32,000 nt of DNA, taken from positions 2,760,001 through 2,792,000 of the forward strand of contig NZ_CP195536.1 of the NCBI RefSeq assembly GCF_051307035.1. The letters run 5' to 3'. Of this stretch, positions 3,713 through 32,000 are shown piece by piece. Source of the DNA: Psychrobacter sp. DM4. Lineage in GTDB: Bacteria; Pseudomonadota; Gammaproteobacteria; Pseudomonadales; Moraxellaceae. A model generated the notes under the pieces. That model saw nothing but the letters and a program-made list of their open reading frames with translations. It ran no database searches and had not been told where the DNA came from. The stretch's first letter is position 1. Every line of letters starts with the position of its first letter. A program made the position numbers and the translations under genes.

Positions 3713-3833
3713 GTCTCACTATAAATAGCTATGCGTATCTCAAAACTTAGCTTTAGCACTTATTACTAGTCGTTCAACAATAATCGCTCAATACTAATCA
3801 CTTAATAATAATCGCTCAACATTGTAAGAAAGG

Positions 3834-4640
3834 ATGCTTATGAAAACCAAATTCAAAAACCTAACTATTTGGATCACAGGCGCGTCAAGTGGGCTTGGTA
3901 CTGCCCTATCCATTGCTTTTGCCAAAAAAGGTGCGACCATCATTTTGAGTGGACGCGATCGCCAAAAGTTAGAGAATGTCAAAGACAAGTGCAAACGTTC
4001 GCACAAACACATCGTGATTCCTTTTGATATTGTTGATAGCGAACAGGCAAAACAAGCGTATCAGTTGGTCAAAATGCAAGCAGGTAAAGTCGATTGGCTT
4101 ATTAATAACGCCGGTATCTCTCAACGCTCACTAATTATGGACACGGATGAAGAAGTTGAACGCCAAATCATGGAGATAGATTATTTCGCTCAAACGCGGC
4201 TGACGAGGTTGGTACTAGCAGATATGATTGATCAAGGCGGCGGCAAGGTAGTCATGATCTCAAGCGTAGCCGGTCTAATTGGTACGCAGTATCGCGGTGC
4301 TTATGGCGCAGCCAAGGCGGCGCTCCATATGTGGGCAAATAGTCTACGCGCCGAATTATACGATCAAGGGATAGATGTCGCTACTATATTTCCAGGATTT
4401 ATCAAAACCAATGTCTCAATCAATGCCTTGACAGGTGATGGTAGCGCACAAGGTACAATGGATGAGGCGACCAATGCAGGTTTGAGTGCTACTGAGTTTG
4501 CAAAGCAAGTAACAAAAGCCTTAGGCAACGGCAAAGAATACATCACCGTCGCCGGCTCTAAAGAAAAAATGGCCATGAGAGTCAATCGCATATCACCGCC
4601 TAAACTTTATAAACTTATTCGTAAGTCACAAGTCAAATAA
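3834..4640 (+). CDS. Short-chain dehydrogenase/reductase (SDR) family oxidoreductase
   Basis: Rossmann motif TGASSGLG, NNAG, and catalytic YGAAKAA (YxxxK). An AGGA sits 6 nt before a second ATG at 3840, so the true start may be 3840. Confidence 0.85.
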   Translation: MLMKTKFKNLTIWITGASSGLGTALSIAFAKKGATIILSGRDRQKLENVKDKCKRSHKHIVIPFDIVDSEQAKQAYQLVKMQAGKVDWLINNAGISQRSLIMDTDEEVERQIMEIDYFAQTRLTRLVLADMIDQGGGKVVMISSVAGLIGTQYRGAYGAAKAALHMWANSLRAELYDQGIDVATIFPGFIKTNVSINALTGDGSAQGTMDEATNAGLSATEFAKQVTKALGNGKEYITVAGSKEKMAMRVNRISPPKLYKLIRKSQVK

Positions 4641-14343: not shown

Positions 14344-14383
14344 GAAGCGTTAAAAAATTGTGCTCCATTTTGGCTTTGCAAAG

Positions 14384-14408
14384 AAAAACCCCTTAATTGG
14401 GGTTTTTT
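14384..14408. terminator. Bidirectional rho-independent terminator after ybbP
   Basis: aaaaacccc-ttaatt-ggggttttttg: a GC stem flanked by an A-run and a T-run, so it is usable on both strands. Confidence 0.75.
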
Positions 14409-14449
14409 GATTGTTGATTTATTGAAGGTTGGTTATGGTTTATCTGCTG

Positions 14450-14464
14450 TAGCTAATCCTGCTA
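14450..14464 (+). repeat. 15-nt near-direct repeat, copy 1 (TAGCTAATCCTGCTA)
   Basis: 13 of 15 positions are identical to 16445-16459 (TAGCTAATGCTACTA). The two copies bracket the AT-rich insert. Confidence 0.35.
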
Positions 14465-14593
14465 TCCGCTATTATCTGCCAGTCTAGGCGAGGCGGTCGT
14501 TATCGTTTGAGCCGTTCCTGTTACCTCGATATCGTCTCAAAACGATACGTCCGCAACTCGCCTAGTCCGTCAGGATAACCGCTGCTATCAGGG
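14458..14593. repeat. Long imperfect palindrome (hairpin A, about 136 nt)
   Basis: By hand pairing, the arm cctgctatccgctattatctgccagtctaggcgaggcggtcgttatcgtttgag matches ctcaaaacgatacgtccgcaactcgcctagtccgtcaggataaccgctgctatcagg. Perfect blocks include ctaggcgag/ctcgcctag and atcgttt/aaacgat. Appears GC-normal by eye, unlike the adjacent AT-rich genes (not counted). Confidence 0.6.
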
Positions 14594-14700
14594 CTAAAAA
14601 ACTCATTAGGTTGATGTTAAGCTAGCATAAGAATCTATATTAAAGTAATAGTGTTAAATTATTTTCATCAATTTTAAATAAGAGTATAATTCACATACAA

Positions 14701-15183
14701 TCACTTAAAACAATCATCAAACTCTCTAAGTAGCTCAAACGTATTTATATAATCCACACCTACTTCACGACAAATATTAGGTATAAGTATTTTCTCACCT
14801 TGTAACTTATACCTTTCTTCAGTAACAACCGTTGAACCATCTGTCATGGCTCTGGCAATCAGCCAAGGATCTGCTGAACCTAAAAAATTTATATTTTTCT
14901 TATGACCTAAATTATATTTTGATTGACATAAATTTGCAATAATACGGAAGTTCTCTTGACATGCATTATCACTTTCAGAATGGAAGTAATGATTATACTG
15001 TCTAACCCAATCTGCTAATTCATCTCCAAAATCTTTGAGTTCATCATAAACTGATCGAATACTATATAAATTCCCTTTATTCTCATGATCACGTAACCAT
15101 TCCCAAAAAACAGGACAAAAATCCAAACCATAATAACGTTTGTTTGCCTCAAGAAATACGTTAGTATCTAAGACATACCTCAT
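14701..15183 (-). CDS. DUF4411-family PIN-like nuclease (putative toxin/effector)
   Basis: The N-terminus MRYVLDTNVFLEANKRYYGLDFCPVFWEWL matches my memory of the DUF4411 signature, including the PIN-type acidic LDTN. About 30% G+C. Its ATG overlaps the stop of the upstream gene (ATGA). Confidence 0.7.
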   Translation of the reverse strand: MRYVLDTNVFLEANKRYYGLDFCPVFWEWLRDHENKGNLYSIRSVYDELKDFGDELADWVRQYNHYFHSESDNACQENFRIIANLCQSKYNLGHKKNINFLGSADPWLIARAMTDGSTVVTEERYKLQGEKILIPNICREVGVDYINTFELLREFDDCFK

Positions 15184-16322
15184 AGTTTCATACTTACTTT
15201 TTGAGCAAACTTCTCAATATTACTAGGGTTCGTGCCTAAAATATTACCAGCATCTCTATAGAGCATTCTCCCAGACAAGGTCTGTGAAATAACTGCTTGA
15301 GATAGCTGTGAGCTAAGTTTGAAATTTTTGACTACATAGTAACTAGGTCCACTTTCGCTCCTATTCTTACTAGCTAGAAATTCTTCGCGAATTCTATGAA
15401 TGTACTCATCATATTTTTTCTTATCAATATAGTTTAAATCCAATGCTCTTCTTGCAACAACATGACGGCTCACATGGAAGTTTTTCACCAATACCTCAAA
15501 AGTTAAGTCCAAATTAGTACTATGTAATTCACTCCATTTTTTATGGAACTCTTTTTTAGGTACTAAGAACTCTCCAGCAACCGCATTACAGAATTGCTCA
15601 GTAGGATTTACCGAAAATATACTATTATCAGAAACGCCTGACTCTCCCTTGAGGATATGAGCCAATTCATGGATCAAAGTGAATAATTGAGCATTTAAAC
15701 TATCCGCAGTATTTATGAATATGAGTGGTGCAACCTCATCAGCTATAGCAAACCCTCGAAATTCCTCAACATTCAAAGGTTTAGTATAATGACCTAGATC
15801 ACTATCCTGTATTACCATTATCATTAAGTCTTCAATAGAGTTGACTAGTTTTCGATGATAGTCCTTAGCATCTTTAGCCTTATCTGACTTTAGCTTTTCA
15901 TTCAGAAAAGCAATCATTTCATTCATGTTAGCTTTGGATAAGTAACCTACATAAGGATTTCTTTCTATACCTTGCTCTTTCAAATAGTTTCTATACCATT
16001 CTACTCTTTCTTGATTTATACAGATAACTTCTTTTAAAGCGTTACTTGGTTTTTCTAATTCTTTACTATCTACAGTCCGCAAATCGGGGATTCTAAGAGC
16101 TTCCTCTTCTGGTATTTCATTCAGAAACAAAAAACCGAATGGTATATTAGTAATTTTGGCAAACTGTTTGGCCTTACTAAAAGCTATTTCTTCTTTACCT
16201 CGTTCAATCTCAGCTAACTTTTCTTCTCTTATAGAAAGTTTTTTTGATATCTCAGACATAGCTAAGCCTGAGCGTTTGATAGCCCAGCTGATAATATCAG
16301 GATTGATAAGAGCATATGCCAT
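15180..16322 (-). CDS. XRE-family HTH fused to an ImmA/IrrE (COG2856, M78-like) zinc metallopeptidase
   Basis: N-terminal HTH (LAMSEISKKLSIREEKLAEIERGK); HExxH zinc motif in FTLIHELAHILKGE; about 150-aa C-terminal extension. Confidence 0.8.
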   Translation of the reverse strand: MAYALINPDIISWAIKRSGLAMSEISKKLSIREEKLAEIERGKEEIAFSKAKQFAKITNIPFGFLFLNEIPEEEALRIPDLRTVDSKELEKPSNALKEVICINQERVEWYRNYLKEQGIERNPYVGYLSKANMNEMIAFLNEKLKSDKAKDAKDYHRKLVNSIEDLMIMVIQDSDLGHYTKPLNVEEFRGFAIADEVAPLIFINTADSLNAQLFTLIHELAHILKGESGVSDNSIFSVNPTEQFCNAVAGEFLVPKKEFHKKWSELHSTNLDLTFEVLVKNFHVSRHVVARRALDLNYIDKKKYDEYIHRIREEFLASKNRSESGPSYYVVKNFKLSSQLSQAVISQTLSGRMLYRDAGNILGTNPSNIEKFAQKVSMKL

Positions 16323-16351
16323 AAGAAACTCAATACGACTGAAGGTAGCTT

Positions 16352-16413
16352 AATATAGTTATATTCTAGCACTTTTCTTATTATCTTCGTCCTAAAATTG
16401 TACCTGACAGGTA
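16352..16413 (-). promoter_or_regulatory. Putative promoter/operator region of the immA-PIN operon
   Basis: On the minus strand there is an extended -10 (TGcTAGAAT, 16371-16363). It overlaps the palindrome AATATA-GT-TATATT (16352-16365). A 13-bp perfect palindrome TACCTGACAGGTA lies at 16401-16413. No convincing -35. Confidence 0.4.
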
Positions 16414-16444
16414 TGATCGTTTTACTTTATGATTAATTAATCAA

Positions 16445-16459
16445 TAGCTAATGCTACTA
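16445..16459 (+). repeat. 15-nt near-direct repeat, copy 2 (TAGCTAATGCTACTA)
   Basis: See copy 1 at 14450-14464. Confidence 0.35.
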
Positions 16460-16498
16460 ACAATACTCGCTTCGGAGAGCGGTTTAGACCAGATTGAA

Positions 16499-16611
16499 GC
16501 GGTAGCTTGGTAGGCTGTGGCGTTTACAGCACCTTGCACAGGAGTGGTCGCTTGGACGTTGGAACGCTACTGTGCAAGGTGCTGTGCGCTACAGACTGCC
16601 AACTACAAGCG
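16499..16611. repeat. Long imperfect palindrome (hairpin B, about 113 nt)
   Basis: A perfect 15-bp core, cagcaccttgcacag (16527-16541), pairs with ctgtgcaaggtgctg (16570-16584). The outer arms ggtaggctgtggcg / cgctacagactgcc and gcggtagctt / aactacaagcg pair imperfectly. The apical region is 28 nt. Confidence 0.6.
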
Positions 16612-16654
16612 AAAAGCAGGATCAGCTCCAAAGCCCCTAAAACAGCAAACCCAA

Positions 16655-16687
16655 AACGCTCGCTATTAACTTAGTGAGCGTTTTTTC
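16655..16687 (+). terminator. Rho-independent terminator with no annotated plus-strand gene upstream
   Basis: Stem cgctcgct / agtgagcg (8 bp, one G-U), 8-nt loop, then a T6 run at 16681-16686. Confidence 0.7.
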
Positions 16688-16706
16688 GTTCAACACAACC
16701 CTCATT

Positions 16707-16715
16707 TGCTATAAT
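16707..16715 (+). promoter_or_regulatory. Putative extended -10 promoter element for avtA
   Basis: TGcTATAAT lies 43 nt upstream of the avtA ATG. The -35 is weak. Confidence 0.45.
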
Positions 16716-16757
16716 AGCGCCACTTTATACAACTAATACCAACCTCACGGTAACGCT

Positions 16758-18162: not shown

Positions 18163-19065
18163 TTAGCTGAGCGCTTTTAGTAACGCTTTAGCACTCATTT
18201 TACCAAACTCATTAGCTGCCATTGGTCCATCACCTGTGATCAGCTTTCTATCTTGATGCGTCTGTCCTGAGGCGAGCTTATTGCTAATCGTCATACCTAG
18301 ATTCTCTAGCTTATCGCCAAAGTACCATGGCATCGTCCCTGGCAGGTAACCTAGTTTTGGCATTTGCTTATCCATACCCGTAGGGAACGCGACTAGCTTA
18401 TAACCTTTAAAGATAAAGTCTTGCTTAGCGTTATCGTCTTTGTCAGGACCATCTAAACTAGCCGCCAATAAAGCCGCAGGGCCATGACATAATGACAAGG
18501 TAAATAGATCTTTTTTGTGACCCCAACGGAGCAATTCACCGAGGTTTTTATCTTCGGGTAAGCCTAGCATCGCGCCATGACCGCCCGGAATAAAGATTGC
18601 GGCATAGTCACTACTATCAGCCATGTCATTTTTGACAAAGTCAGCGATACTTTTTGGATTCTCAAGTTTTGACTCGTACTCGTTATAAATCTCTTTAACG
18701 TCTTCATCTTCTTTTGGCATTGCCCACTGCTCGACTTTGACAGACTCGCCCGTTGGCGTAAACACGTCGATTTCAAAACCAGCTTTTTTAAAGTGTAATA
18801 AAGGCACCATCATCTCTACAGGATGGTTACCGGTATCAAACTTATTACCGTTTTCCATGGTCATATATTGCTCTTGGGTACAGACCATGAGTATTTTTTT
18901 GCTGCCAGCATAAGGCGTATCGTACTCGGTATTATCGTAGTTGGTTTTATTCGGCGCTGCCAATTTAAGCGATGATGTCGAGGGAATATAAATGCCTGCC
19001 TCCACTTCTTGCGGCTCTAACCCTAACGTATCTTTGGCTTTGTCTAAGAGGTCTTGGATATTCAT
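18163..19065 (-). CDS. hchA: Hsp31-type glyoxalase III / protein deglycase (DJ-1/PfpI superfamily)
   Basis: Collinear with E. coli HchA from memory: FDTGNHPVEMMVPLLHFKKAGFE, AAIFIPGGHGA, nucleophile elbow SLCHGPAAL, and LITGDGPMAAN. Confidence 0.88.
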   Translation of the reverse strand: MNIQDLLDKAKDTLGLEPQEVEAGIYIPSTSSLKLAAPNKTNYDNTEYDTPYAGSKKILMVCTQEQYMTMENGNKFDTGNHPVEMMVPLLHFKKAGFEIDVFTPTGESVKVEQWAMPKEDEDVKEIYNEYESKLENPKSIADFVKNDMADSSDYAAIFIPGGHGAMLGLPEDKNLGELLRWGHKKDLFTLSLCHGPAALLAASLDGPDKDDNAKQDFIFKGYKLVAFPTGMDKQMPKLGYLPGTMPWYFGDKLENLGMTISNKLASGQTHQDRKLITGDGPMAANEFGKMSAKALLKALS

Positions 19066-21808: not shown

Positions 21809-21884
21809 GGCTCGATAGCTCAGTAGGTAGAGCAACGGATTGAAAATCCGTGTGTCGGCAGTTCGATCCTGCCTCGAGCCACCA
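21809..21884 (+). tRNA. tRNA-Phe (anticodon GAA), CCA encoded
   Basis: 76 nt. Acceptor stem GGCTCGA/TCGAGCC, D-loop AGCTCAGTAGGTAGAGC, anticodon loop TTGAAAA (GAA), T-arm GGCAGTTCGATCCTGCC, 3' ACCA. Confidence 0.95.
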
Positions 21885-28744: not shown

Positions 28745-30146
28745 GCATCAATGCGACTCCTGCGGTAATAAAGATGTTGAGATAAAAAGACGCTATAAAG
28801 ATGATACTTACTGCGCTAATTGTTATCGGATATGGTTTATCAAAAAGCCTTGCAGTCAGTGCAGCGAGATAAATCGTCTGCACAAAAAGGAAGATTTTGC
28901 CGTCTGTAGAGCTTGTCGTATGAATCAGCCTTGTACTCGCTGTGGCGGCGAGGCGGTTAAAGATGGGGCTAATACTGAATACGGGCGCGTGTGCCAAACC
29001 TGTTATCAGGGCTATTTTAAGACCAAAAAAGAGTGTTTTGAGTGCGGTAAGTTTAAAAGAGGGGTTTGTAGCTATTCAAAATTGTCTCATGATCATGGGG
29101 TATGCGTAAGCTGCTACCAAAGTCATTTTAGAGAAACTTGTCCTCTTTGTCACAAATATAGAGAGCTTGTCACTACTGATACAGGTGTTATGTGTCACAA
29201 ATGCCATGAGTTCGGTGAGATACCCTGCGAGAGTTGCCACAAGCTTATGCCTGCTGGTATGGGTAAAAGATGTGATAGTTGTTATTGGTCACAGAGACTT
29301 GAGCATGAGGCCAAGATTAATACTTACCTTTTGACTGATGGTGTGATGAGACAAGCTTATACTGCTTTCACAATATGGTTCGAGACCGAGCTTGATAGCA
29401 AGACTGCTGTGCTTAAACATAATAATTATATCGATTTCTTTGTTCGCTGTGATGAGCTATGGGGCAAAATACCAAATTATGAGTCATTGCTACAAGAGTT
29501 CAAGCCTAACGGCCTACGTGTGTATCTAACAGCGCTACGATGGCTGATTAAAACCAAGCAAGTTGTGGTAGATCCTGATGTCAAAAGTCAGATTGCAGAA
29601 GAAGAGCGTATCGTGAATTTACTGGCTAAATTTGATGGCAAAGCGCCTCACTGCATCAGTGATTATCACAATTATTTAGAGCATAAGTTACTTAATGGTG
29701 AAACATCGCTTAAATCAGTCAGGTTAGCCTTGCAGCCTGCAATAGACCTATGTACTCAGTTTAGACTTGAAGGCTCAAATACGCCAATTCAGGAACAAAT
29801 AGACGGGTATTTGCTGATTAAGCGAGGTCAACGTAATGCGCTCTATGGCTTCGTGATGTTTTTGAATAGAAAATGTGGGTCAAGCCTAGTTTGCGTAAAA
29901 CCCTCTAAAGATTCAGTCTTAAAAGCCAATCGAGGTGAGATTGAAAGGCAGATGATGGCGCTCAGTAACCAGCCTAAGCCATTGTCGGACAAAGATAAGT
30001 TGACTTGGTTGCAGCTTGGTATGGCTTATTTTCATCAAGTAAATATTCAGTTAAAGATACTCAAGACATTAACTATCCATCCATGCGATGAAGAGATGTC
30101 AAAAATAATATTTAATGACAAAGAGTATTGGTTGCCAATACTCTAA
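28722..30146 (+). CDS. Six-zinc-ribbon protein with alpha-helical C-terminal domain; candidate TnsF/TniE-like target selector
   Basis: Six consecutive CxxC-x(13-20)-CxxC units in residues 11-187, then about 285 aa with SAM-like/recombinase-N-like helical repeats. ATG with a GAGGGA Shine-Dalgarno. Overlaps tniQ by 23 nt. Fifth gene of the transposition operon. Confidence 0.6.
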   Translation: MINIKKAKHQCDSCGNKDVEIKRRYKDDTYCANCYRIWFIKKPCSQCSEINRLHKKEDFAVCRACRMNQPCTRCGGEAVKDGANTEYGRVCQTCYQGYFKTKKECFECGKFKRGVCSYSKLSHDHGVCVSCYQSHFRETCPLCHKYRELVTTDTGVMCHKCHEFGEIPCESCHKLMPAGMGKRCDSCYWSQRLEHEAKINTYLLTDGVMRQAYTAFTIWFETELDSKTAVLKHNNYIDFFVRCDELWGKIPNYESLLQEFKPNGLRVYLTALRWLIKTKQVVVDPDVKSQIAEEERIVNLLAKFDGKAPHCISDYHNYLEHKLLNGETSLKSVRLALQPAIDLCTQFRLEGSNTPIQEQIDGYLLIKRGQRNALYGFVMFLNRKCGSSLVCVKPSKDSVLKANRGEIERQMMALSNQPKPLSDKDKLTWLQLGMAYFHQVNIQLKILKTLTIHPCDEEMSKIIFNDKEYWLPIL

Positions 30147-30176
30147 AATTAGCTCTAAAAACTAAAATATGTGATT

Positions 30177-32000
30177 TCATTCACCTGAATATTCATATAC
30201 TAACCTTTGTAAAGATTGCATTACGTATTCTATTTTTAAAAAGCGACCAAATGCAAAATTTTGTAGTACTCTATATAAGAACTTTCGATGGTTATTGTCG
30301 CTGCATACAATCATAAATCTTAAAACGAGCTTCGCAAGCCTATCTTCTGCAACTAAACCATCAATACTTTTTATAGCTTTTGTCATACATGCTGATATTG
30401 CCTGCTCTATTATAATACGATGTACCTTATTACCCTGCACACCATACATATTATTTACGATTGAAGCTTCTAGGTAAATCTTACCAATTAAGCTGTTATG
30501 AACTATCCTTTTATTGAATCCTATAAGTACTATGTTTTTCATTAAGCTTGCCAATAATGATACCGCTATTTCAGAGTCGGGAAAGTTTATAGTCGTATCG
30601 TTCAAAAGGTTCGTAAGTATAATTAAATCATCTATTTCCTTAGATAGCTCAATAAGGTCAGTTAAGTAATACTGGAAATAAAGTCCGTAGAAAGCCATGT
30701 ATTTTAAAGCGTTTTTTCTATCATCAAACGTTAAATATTTTTCATCAGTAAATTTCATCACTAAATGATGAAGGCTGATCAGATTACATTCAGTGCCAGT
30801 TTTTATAAATCCGCCGATAACGGAATCTAGGCATAGCCAAGGTATTTCGTGAGATAGTGCAATTTTTATGCTACTGAAAACAGAATCACTGACCAATCCT
30901 AAGTTTTTGACCTCAGAAACGATAGTTGGTAAATCAAACTCCTTAGGTTTTTCTATAATAGAGTTATCTAGCAGTGTTTGCAGGGCACAAATTAGTTCGC
31001 CATGAAAATAGTGAGTGCTATTAGAATTGATTGTGCTAACTTGACCTTCGTATTCATTAATTCTTAGAAAACTATCGTTAGTTACATTACTTATCCAAAG
31101 CCTAATTGCTCTGTCTGTTTCTTCACTGACGTAAATTGATGTTCCTAAAAGGAGCATGGATTTATACAAGTTAGTCACACATAAATATAGTATGCCGTAA
31201 ATATCAACTGTTAGAGCATTGAACTCTGTTATATCGCTATACGACTTAGTTAAACACTTGTTGGCGTTTTTATTTAGCAACAGGCTATGTACTATTTCTA
31301 CTTCTTCCTTAACCATACTACTTTGTATAGCTTTCATACCTTTTACATAGAGAGGTAAGTCAGACTTACGCAAGAACTCTTCAATACTCTCTTCAATAGG
31401 GTTATCTTGCTTAATTTTTTGTAGATAAGCACTCAAATCTTCAAGAGGGCTAACCTCACTTAATTTAATTTTTTCAAATAACGGTTTAGGGTAATTGTGC
31501 TGTGATTCATCAACAATTTTCATAGCAAGATCGTATATAGTGGCACTAACAGTCTCACGTTCTAAAAGTTTAACCGTTTCTAAACGGTACTGAGCTTCGC
31601 CACCTATATCTAAATTATTCAACTTTTTCCCAAGCTCACTTTCGATGCTAATTAAATCTTTATGTATGGCTAAATTACTATCGACTAATAGCTTTAAATA
31701 TTGTTTGCCATCTATCTCATAGGTAACGCCTCCATAGACGTTTTCAAAAACTTTGTCCTCTTCAAAGTTATTATTAACGCGACTGCTAAAAGAGTTTAGA
31801 TAGAAATTGGTTATTATAGGGGCGCTTTTGTACGGGTTATCTATGAATAGTTTGACTATAACAGCTTCTATAAAGTCAAAATCTATAAAGAAACCAACTT
31901 GGAATAGAAAAAACTCAAACTCATGTTTATCTAACGAGAATAAAGGAGTAGGAATACGAGATAGTTGCTGTTTTGCTAGCTTTGGATCTTCTCCACCTTC
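30177..32000 (-). CDS. Large hypothetical protein, transposon cargo, 5'-partial (at least 607 codons)
   Basis: The ORF-track entry starts at TTG 31622. My translation of the reverse strand from 32000 to 31623 gives 126 further in-frame sense codons (EGGEDPKLAKQQLSRIPTPLFSLDKHEFEFF...) with no stop and no ATG/GTG. About 28% G+C in one counted line. No motif recognised. Confidence 0.65.
   Translation of the reverse strand, partial: EGGEDPKLAKQQLSRIPTPLFSLDKHEFEFFLFQVGFFIDFDFIEAVIVKLFIDNPYKSAPIITNFYLNSFSSRVNNNFEEDKVFENVYGGVTYEIDGKQYLKLLVDSNLAIHKDLISIESELGKKLNNLDIGGEAQYRLETVKLLERETVSATIYDLAMKIVDESQHNYPKPLFEKIKLSEVSPLEDLSAYLQKIKQDNPIEESIEEFLRKSDLPLYVKGMKAIQSSMVKEEVEIVHSLLLNKNANKCLTKSYSDITEFNALTVDIYGILYLCVTNLYKSMLLLGTSIYVSEETDRAIRLWISNVTNDSFLRINEYEGQVSTINSNSTHYFHGELICALQTLLDNSIIEKPKEFDLPTIVSEVKNLGLVSDSVFSSIKIALSHEIPWLCLDSVIGGFIKTGTECNLISLHHLVMKFTDEKYLTFDDRKNALKYMAFYGLYFQYYLTDLIELSKEIDDLIILTNLLNDTTINFPDSEIAVSLLASLMKNIVLIGFNKRIVHNSLIGKIYLEASIVNNMYGVQGNKVHRIIIEQAISACMTKAIKSIDGLVAEDRLAKLVLRFMIVCSDNNHRKFLYRVLQNFAFGRFLKIEYVMQSLQRLVYEYSGE

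Follow-up and report, generated by a model that had tools for sequence, protein, structure and literature searches.

What is the function of a tightly coupled gene pair located between two core genes in a 32,000-nucleotide stretch of the Psychrobacter sp. DM4 genome (contig NZ_CP195536.1, positions 2,760,001 to 2,792,000; this whole stretch is referred to as the window in the following), and what brought the pair to this site? The two minus-strand open reading frames (ORFs), encoding proteins of 380 aa (MAYALINPD...) and 160 aa (MRYVLDTNVF...), had already been described in a reading of the sequence alone, which took them for a candidate uncharacterised toxin-antitoxin (TA) or anti-phage module of foreign base composition. 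The latter impression holds, with a GC content of 0.34 in the cassette versus 0.43 in the remaining window. At the level of sequence comparison, our analysis well supports that the pair belongs to the type II TA systems of the VapBC52 family. We further regard it as probable that it represents a gammaproteobacterial VapBC52-family TA system which a defence hotspot of Psychrobacter carries as cargo and which acts by the mechanism proposed below. The genes are arranged as follows:

15180..16322, minus strand: antitoxin gene, 380 aa (ORF list, Pfam, profile match to VapB52)
14701..15183, minus strand: toxin gene, 160 aa, DUF4411 PIN-fold nuclease (Pfam, profile match to VapC52)
15180..15183, minus strand: ATGA stop/start overlap, translational coupling (ORF coordinates, sequence)

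The smaller protein is indeed the DUF4411 PIN-like protein that the sequence-only reading had made of it (Pfam DUF4411, E = 4.5e-46, 157 bits at a cut-off of 23.5). Its AlphaFold2 (AF2) model, with a predicted local distance difference test score (pLDDT) of 94.5, adopts the VapC PIN fold, and Foldseek matched it to VapC toxins of Rickettsia, Shigella and Mycobacterium tuberculosis with a probability of 1.0 and template modelling (TM) scores of 0.6–0.68. Among 48 homologues, D6, D105 and E123 do not vary at all, and E48 is nearly invariant. For the 380-aa protein, a combination of an XRE-type helix-turn-helix (HTH) domain and an HExxH peptidase had been proposed. The peptidase was recovered directly (Pfam Peptidase_M78, 3.6e-15, 56 bits, cut-off 22), while HTH_3 scored 16.6 bits and thus under its cut-off of 23. 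The HTH assignment is borne out by the AF2 model (pLDDT 82.8, predicted TM score 0.79), whose five-helix N-terminal domain matches the HTH domains of ImmR, C.Csp231I and DdrO in Foldseek with a probability of 1.0. The antitoxin layout hence comprises an N-terminal XRE-type HTH, a flexible linker, a middle zinc-peptidase domain of the M78 (ImmA/IrrE) type and a helical C-terminal domain; the HTH is presumed to bind DNA. The segments that matter for the following are:

16125..16301, minus strand: HTH domain, residues 8–66, with helices 8–18, 22–29, 33–40, 48–58 and 62–66 (AF2, Foldseek)
16074..16088, minus strand: PDLRT motif, residues 79–83, predicted self-cleavage between L81 and R82 (alignment, conservation, low-pLDDT linker)
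15597..15671, minus strand: zinc-peptidase active site H218-E219-L-A-H222 (HELAH, residues 218–222) with E242 as third ligand (alignment)

The identity of the pair became evident from a search of solved structures, where a single entry, PDB 9vzy, was found to combine two chains, one named ‘HTH cro/C1-type’ (393 residues) and one named ‘DUF4411 family protein’ (162 residues), each matched by its corresponding window protein. According to Singh et al., NAR 2026 (PMC13273310), 9vzy is the VapB52-VapC52 complex and 9vzz is VapC52, encoded by the M. tuberculosis genes Rv2515c-Rv2514c. A profile built from 45 antitoxin sequences matched VapB52 (9vzy_A) with E = 3.5e-33, profile positions 8–379 aligning with chain residues 2–387, and a profile of 48 toxin sequences matched VapC52 (9vzy_D) with E = 7.7e-20 (profile 3–155, chain 12–156). 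Between single sequences the similarity is weak, pairwise BLASTP detecting the same relationships at 23% identity (E = 3e-16) for the antitoxin and 27% identity (E = 1e-15) for the toxin. Since the profiles match both chains of the complex from end to end, we assign the pair to the VapBC52 family. The sequence-only reading, which had regarded the DUF4411 pairing as experimentally uncharacterised, was out of date on this point: the association of HTH-DUF955 with DUF4411 proteins was described bioinformatically in 2017 (PMC5499597), Rv2514c was shown to be toxic and to be rescued by Rv2515c in 2019 (PMC6504116), and the structural and mechanistic study followed in 2026 (PMC13273310). With VapBC52 being a named and characterised system, the novelty claimed for the pair as such falls.

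For the M. tuberculosis proteins it was reported that the HTH-like N-terminal domain of VapB52 binds the outer face of the VapC52 dimer and is needed for toxin binding, that the middle M78 domain holds zinc via H216, H220 and E245 together with C229 as a ‘cysteine switch’, and that the C-terminal domain occludes the toxin active site in a complex of 1:2 stoichiometry (PMC13273310). In the same study, single-stranded DNA (ssDNA) triggered an HExxH-dependent self-cleavage of VapB52, probably at F75-R76, that sheds the N-terminal domain; VapC52 cut tRNAs, those of phage D29 among them, and mutation of D6 (D6A) inactivated the toxin (PMC13273310). The window pair shares with VapBC52 the long three-domain antitoxin (N-terminal HTH, M78 middle and helical C-terminal domain) combined with a DUF4411 PIN toxin, the antitoxin gene in first position, the HExxH+E signature, D6 of the PIN domain and a linker motif composed of a hydrophobic residue and arginine between the N-terminal and middle domains. 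In a clade alignment of 45 antitoxin homologues, 43–79% identical to the window protein, P79-D80-L81-R82-T83 is invariant (45/45), as are H218, E219, H222, E242, C245-N246 and E251. H218, H222 and E242 align with VapB52 H216, H220 and E245, and PDLRT, located in the low-pLDDT linker between HTH and peptidase in the AF2 model, aligns with D-F75-R76-R of VapB52 (the ‘FR motif’), the P1 residue being a variant (L for F).

There are also differences between the two. Apart from having L-R where VapB52 has F-R, the window antitoxin is shorter (380 versus 415 aa), and its loop G226xSG229xS231D232 between H222 and E242, invariant in 45/45 clade members, is found at the place of the Cys-switch loop of VapB52. 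The host is a gammaproteobacterium, and the genes reside in a defence hotspot. As the Cys-switch loop is absent and an invariant GxSGxSD is present instead, the way in which the peptidase is kept off may differ; this GxSGxSD clade may gate its peptidase differently from VapB52 and CapP.

On this basis we propose the following mechanism. At rest, one 380-aa antitoxin would hold a dimer of the DUF4411 PIN toxin, as the end-to-end homology to the VapB52/VapC52 complex leads us to expect, with the N-terminal HTH gripping the toxin exterior and the C-terminal helical domain covering its active site, both of which were seen for VapB52/VapC52 and are presumed here. Repression of the operon is probably a further task of the HTH. 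Stress or infection would then provide a signal, most likely ssDNA as for VapB52 and CapP, that activates the M78 zinc peptidase of the antitoxin, which would cut its own HTH-peptidase linker between L81 and R82 and thereby remove the domain required for toxin binding; the predicted position derives from the alignment with VapB52 F75-R76 and from the L-R and F-R sites of the IrrE/DdrO and CapP/CapH pairs. The freed PIN toxin (D6, E48, D105, E123, Mg2+/Mn2+) would cleave tRNAs, a target suggested by VapC52, and halt translation, and the outcome would be growth arrest and possibly an aborted phage infection. A peptidase-gated nuclease had been surmised in the sequence-only reading as well, which is probably right in this.

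Self-cleavage of this kind would fit a wider pattern. IrrE cuts DdrO at L106-R107, the same P1-P1’ pair as L81-R82, and CapP cuts CapH at F82-R83, with the Arg being essential; the Cys-switch loop occurs in just 33% of CapP proteins and is absent from IrrE, which makes its loss in the present clade nothing unusual among relatives. The window antitoxin resembles CapH/CapP and DdrO/IrrE, whose peptidases respond to ssDNA or damage, in having an M78 peptidase predicted to cut an HTH module after a hydrophobic residue followed by Arg. It differs from them in that HTH and peptidase form one polypeptide and in that the proposed output is the release of a bound toxin rather than de-repression of an operon. 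In regulators of the CapH/CapP type, which control an immune operon downstream, a separate HTH repressor is cleaved in trans by a peptidase-HTH-GAF protein. The window antitoxin is a fused ORF in which Pfam detected no GAF domain, and the toxin gene is the sole downstream gene, which sets the pair apart from CapH/CapP-type systems. With canonical VapBC modules it shares the PIN-fold toxin, but its antitoxin is a 43-kDa enzyme (380 aa) instead of a DNA-binding peptide of 8–13 kDa, and the stoichiometry of the homologue VapBC52 is 1:2, unlike that of canonical VapBC.

A link to RosmerTA, in which the RmrA antitoxin (HTH plus M78) is paired with an RmrT toxin and acts in anti-phage abortive infection (Millman et al. 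2022), had been raised as well; the window pair would then combine such an antitoxin with a new RmrT toxin. At the level of domains there is a resemblance: both look like two-gene, TA-like defence modules with an HTH + ImmA/M78 antitoxin, 14 PADLOC RmrA models match our antitoxin (best 2.6e-16), and NetFlax (Ernits et al. 2023) places pairs of ImmA-type antitoxins and PIN-like toxins in a ‘Rosmer/ImmA zone’ (PMC10440598). The best RmrA match, however, spans the peptidase region alone (184–322 of 380), where the similarity is strongest; full-length RmrA matches are weak (31–41 bits), and it is VapB52, not RmrA, that matches the antitoxin over its full length. The toxin is not a known RmrT, and no PADLOC model, RmrT included, matched it at E ≤ 0.1. 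We have therefore dropped the assignment to RosmerTA, in view of a likeness that is confined to the domains of the antitoxin, and consider it quite improbable.

The VapBC52-type pair turned out to be widespread. For the antitoxin, 3,110 homologues were counted at E ≤ 1e-5, and a scan of species-representative genomes yielded 547 confirmed relatives of its clade, mostly from marine and soil Gammaproteobacteria; an exhaustive profile search for DUF4411 returned 7,426 clusters at 50% identity. A DUF4411 gene directly follows the antitoxin gene in 85 of 94 related loci, 75 of these 85 with the 4-nt overlap, so that the pairing is far beyond chance and the antitoxin-first, translationally coupled operon read from the ATGA at 15180–15183 proves to be the rule. 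Homologues occur on plasmids (49 records, 27 of them conjugative) and on 33 IMG/VR contigs, where 31 of the 33 are paired with the long antitoxin, whereas among deposited phage genomes they are a rarity, with 2 records; the two window proteins also have full-length matches in PHROGs families, phrog_2439 at 8.6e-52 and phrog_11126 at 2.9e-43. Seven loci with room for the partner (L026, L034, L049, L066, L068, L071 and L072, loci being designated by L numbers) have orphan antitoxins, as would be expected if certain lineages had let the toxin gene decay. Among the orphans, one adjoins a transposase-like ORF and another apparently a HipBA-like pair.

Such a distribution might also be expected of a plain addiction or stabilisation module without any part in phage defence, in which the peptidase would only tune antitoxin turnover and loss of the module would kill the cell. 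The occurrence on 49 plasmids (27 conjugative) would be in line with this notion, as would the seven orphan-antitoxin loci, which TA decay would give, the retention of the pair at one locus across Psychrobacter strains whose antitoxins are 63–79% identical, and the lack of protection against D29 upon co-expression of VapB52 and VapC52. On the other hand, CapP has the same sensor design, with a peptidase activated by ssDNA, and the genomic surroundings of the pair speak a different language.

In all close relatives the pair adjoins the 3’ end of a gene for an FtsX-type ABC permease. The slot between this gene and avtA, encoding valine-pyruvate transaminase (window 14344–16757), is variable among strains (L193–L196), and its empty version in P. 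celer (L196) allowed us to delimit the insertion, since homology to the empty site stops at 14385 and resumes at 16636:

14386..16635, no strand assigned: inserted segment of ~2.25 kb comprising hairpin, repeat, toxin, antitoxin and repeat (alignment to empty site)
14383..14408, plus strand: terminator-like hairpin that spans the insert’s left boundary and at present serves the FtsX gene (sequence scan)

The ancestral FtsX terminator was displaced to ~16653–16686, where it aligns to L196. In strain M13 (L195), the slot is occupied by a CD-NTase + NUDIX pair resembling CBASS, a system of anti-phage signalling by cyclic oligonucleotides, in P. immobilis (L193) by an AIPR protein, and in strain AH5 (L194) by PIN_8, a transposase and DUF6530. 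Given the empty site and the alternative cargos, the view of the cassette as just a long-standing resident passed on vertically had to be revised. The variable slot is a clear case of guilt by association for a defence role of the pair. The type II TA/defence logic of the sequence-only reading is upheld. A second slot beyond avtA contains, in some strains, a gene for a 465–472-aa AAA_15/AAA_21 ATPase (PADLOC HEC-02A, PD-T4-4_A, AriA-like) with a 190–191-aa partner lacking any family match; the window carries a DJ-1/PfpI gene (18163–19065) in its place:

L001 4107–6076, minus strand, also L002 and L003: second-slot ATPase pair (PADLOC)
L194 7421–9408, plus strand: second-slot ATPase pair (PADLOC)

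That bona fide defence genes occupy the same slot in other strains argues against mere addiction, and so does the company kept elsewhere by the repeats that bound the insert, a family adjoining SIR2, Avs2, GmrSD, AIPR and NACHT genes. We therefore take the addiction reading to be unlikely, although it deserves to be kept in mind, and favour the VapBC52-type defence cargo. Besides the cassette, a tRNA-Phe gene (GAA; 21809–21884, plus strand) is conserved in related loci at a distance of ~5 kb; as it is not adjacent to the insert, it is not its integration site. A second low-GC stretch (0.32–0.34) at 30000–32000 contains a 481-aa ORF (30177–31622, minus strand) without Pfam or PADLOC match.

The insert is bracketed by two structured repeats in inverted orientation:

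14441..14609, minus strand: Flavo-1-like structured repeat, FtsX side, 5’ end toward the cassette (Rfam, model R1, fold)
16472..16637, plus strand: Flavo-1-like structured repeat, avtA side, 5’ end toward the cassette (Rfam, model R1, fold)

The Flavo-1 RNA motif (RF01705) is reported to go back to Weinberg et al. 2010. The FtsX-side repeat matches the Rfam model at 14451–14599 (minus strand) with 45.4 bits, above the gathering score of 42, and the avtA-side repeat at 16482–16627 (plus strand) with 28 bits, under the gathering score; with our model R1, built from four repeat copies of these loci, the two scored 171 and 144 bits, by which the avtA-side repeat, too, is a clear member. The 32-kb window contains no further Flavo-1 matches beyond these two, and the insert’s right-hand boundary falls on the 3’ end of the avtA-side repeat. 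Each repeat constitutes a hairpin of ~150–170 nt with imperfect pairing; its outer modules are conserved, whereas the inner stem varies. Folding of the DNA gave z = −7.1 on its own strand versus −3.5 on the opposite one for the FtsX-side repeat and −7.0 versus −3.0 for the avtA-side repeat. Covariation was pronounced, 33 of 47 pairs changing on both sides, with 0 of 500 shuffles reaching the observed values and controls with slid registers collapsing. The repeats share with Rfam Flavo-1 the outer helices as well as the conserved sequence modules on the 5’ and 3’ sides, in line with the left copy exceeding the gathering score, but are larger, with a long variable inner hairpin (~150–170 nt versus the 76-nt model), and come from a gammaproteobacterium instead of Bacteroidota. 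Upstream of the antitoxin gene, some strains have a short 77-nt form that consists of the outer modules only and is near the Rfam model in size, and L005–L008 show no repeat at all. An identity as integron attC or Xer/pdif sites was rejected on inspection by eye: the termini look unlike the RYYYAAC/GTTRRRY cores of attC and unlike half-sites of XerC/D, and the copies stand in inverted rather than direct orientation. Copies outside the window are:

L011 5539–5615, L012 4756–4832 and L014 259–335: short 77-nt repeat form
L195 977–1142, minus strand, and 3725–3893, plus strand: same inverted repeats, bracketing the CBASS-like cargo of strain M13
L194 5684–5852, plus strand; L193 3799–3953, minus strand; metagenome loci L095–L159: further repeat copies

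Are these repeats part of a mobile cassette or merely dispersed in intergenic regions? The empty P. celer site carries no repeat copy, R1 detected copies in Psychrobacter loci only and always at cassette edges, and the orthologous avtA-side copy is 89–92% identical beside three different cargos. Specificity for the TA cassette can be discarded, as an antitoxin-like ORF was present in only 3 and a DUF4411 ORF in none of 65 metagenomic repeat stretches. On higher-scoring metagenomic contigs (GC ~0.5), the 5’-side neighbour of the repeat was of defence type in ~10 of 20 tested, namely SIR2-like (twice), caspase-like peptidase, AIPR, ResIII/SNF2 helicase, GmrSD, SMEK-NACHT, Avs2 and PDC-M54A, versus 0 of 10 on the 3’ side, where housekeeping genes were found (purL four times, lplA and a 2-hydroxyacid dehydrogenase gene twice each, an avtA-like gene once); the one-sided Fisher test gave p = 0.006 for this bias, with loci that are not all independent. 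This polar placement by defence cargo led us to reject, for the Psychrobacter-type copies, the idea of ordinary dispersed intergenic repeats unlinked to the cassette. The same idea does hold for low-GC, apparently Bacteroidota copies (L113, L125, L126, L130, L133, L150 and others), which are clear Rfam Flavo-1 matches (55–70 bits) with a long inner hairpin (~140–150 nt versus the 76-nt model): the 5’-side neighbours of those tested were housekeeping genes, and no defence association was seen. The fixed polarity at defence-cargo edges that distinguishes the Psychrobacter copies was not seen in those tested. A Flavobacterium transcriptome study found Flavo-1 matches in either orientation to transcripts, or outside them (PMC9723704).

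Taking these observations together, we put forward a tentative model, plausible but short of probable, in which the pair would be cargo of undescribed small defence cassettes of Psychrobacter, 2–4 kb in size and with interchangeable contents, whose ends would be formed by inverted, outward-pointing ~160-nt repeats related to Flavo-1. With the same reservation, the hotspots of such cassettes would be the FtsX/avtA slot, purL, lplA and 2-hydroxyacid dehydrogenase genes, the repeats would serve as recombination or transposition termini or as insulators, and the cargo would include VapBC52-like TA, CBASS-like, AIPR, SIR2, Avs2, GmrSD and NACHT systems.

As to the regulation of the operon, two candidate elements upstream of the antitoxin gene were noted:

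16363..16371, minus strand: candidate extended −10 element TGcTAGAAT of the operon (read by eye)
16401..16413, no strand assigned: palindrome TACCTGTCAGGTA, candidate operator for the HTH, upstream of the −10 element (read by eye)

The candidate extended −10 element is conserved in 6 of 7 Psychrobacter upstream regions; a scan for a two-hexamer consensus promoter found no minus-strand promoter upstream of the operon. The palindrome TACCTGTCAGGTA is identical in L011 and L013 and has one mismatch in L001 and L015. A conserved upstream palindrome would also suit a fused ImmR/ImmA- or DdrO/IrrE-like switch of a mobile element or damage regulon, with DUF4411 as an effector or accessory nuclease instead of a toxin, the more so as ICEBs1, CBASS operons and the radiation response of Deinococcus are under the control of M78 peptidases with HTH partners. 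But genes of a mobile element or regulon, such as those for an integrase or excisionase, are missing from the 2.25-kb insert, the homologue Rv2514c is toxic and rescued by Rv2515c, and the VapBC52 crystal structure demonstrates direct occlusion of the toxin active site, such that we consider a switch of this kind highly improbable and retain the interpretation as a TA pair.

Conservation is uneven along the operon. From nucleotide ~1000 onward (~14701–15320, encoding the antitoxin C-terminal domain and the toxin), it is ~90% identical to L011, L013 and L015, whereas the part encoding HTH and peptidase is just 70–80% identical to the same loci. The toxin together with its occluding domain and the sensor part therefore have different histories, which suggests a mosaic operon, with either a recombination breakpoint within the antitoxin gene or a faster-evolving sensor part.

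Several points weigh against the reading of the pair as VapBC52-type defence cargo operating by the proposed mechanism. With an identity to VapBC52 of just 23–27%, trigger and target could differ. The Cys-switch loop, on whose cysteine the activation proposed for VapB52 and CapP hinges, is not found, there being no Cys between H222 and E242, and VapB52 C229 either aligns to the invariant S231 or falls in a 4-residue insertion that is absent here. In M. tuberculosis, protection against phage D29 was obtained with the overexpressed toxin alone and not with VapB52 co-expressed (PMC13273310), so that defence by an intact system of the VapBC52 family is not established. PADLOC offers no model for the 160-aa toxin (no match at E ≤ 0.1), and the putative operator and promoter come from by-eye reading of the upstream sequence.

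For the pair itself, the value of these findings is modest. The VapBC52 architecture, whose study had been confined to M. tuberculosis, proves to be that of a very large family; the gammaproteobacterial branch retains the self-cleavage motif, has no cysteine switch and resides in a genuine defence hotspot. This makes the clade well suited to address the question left by the M. tuberculosis work: does the intact pair of genes perceive infection and provide defence? The context, i.e., the defence hotspot with its polar repeats, is the new part and may matter more. Repeats that mark, with fixed polarity, where core genes give way to defence cargo could help to track down defence islets in Moraxellaceae and offer a clue to the exchange of these islets, and, if true, the cassette model would give Flavo-1-type elements, an orphan Rfam motif, their first functional context.

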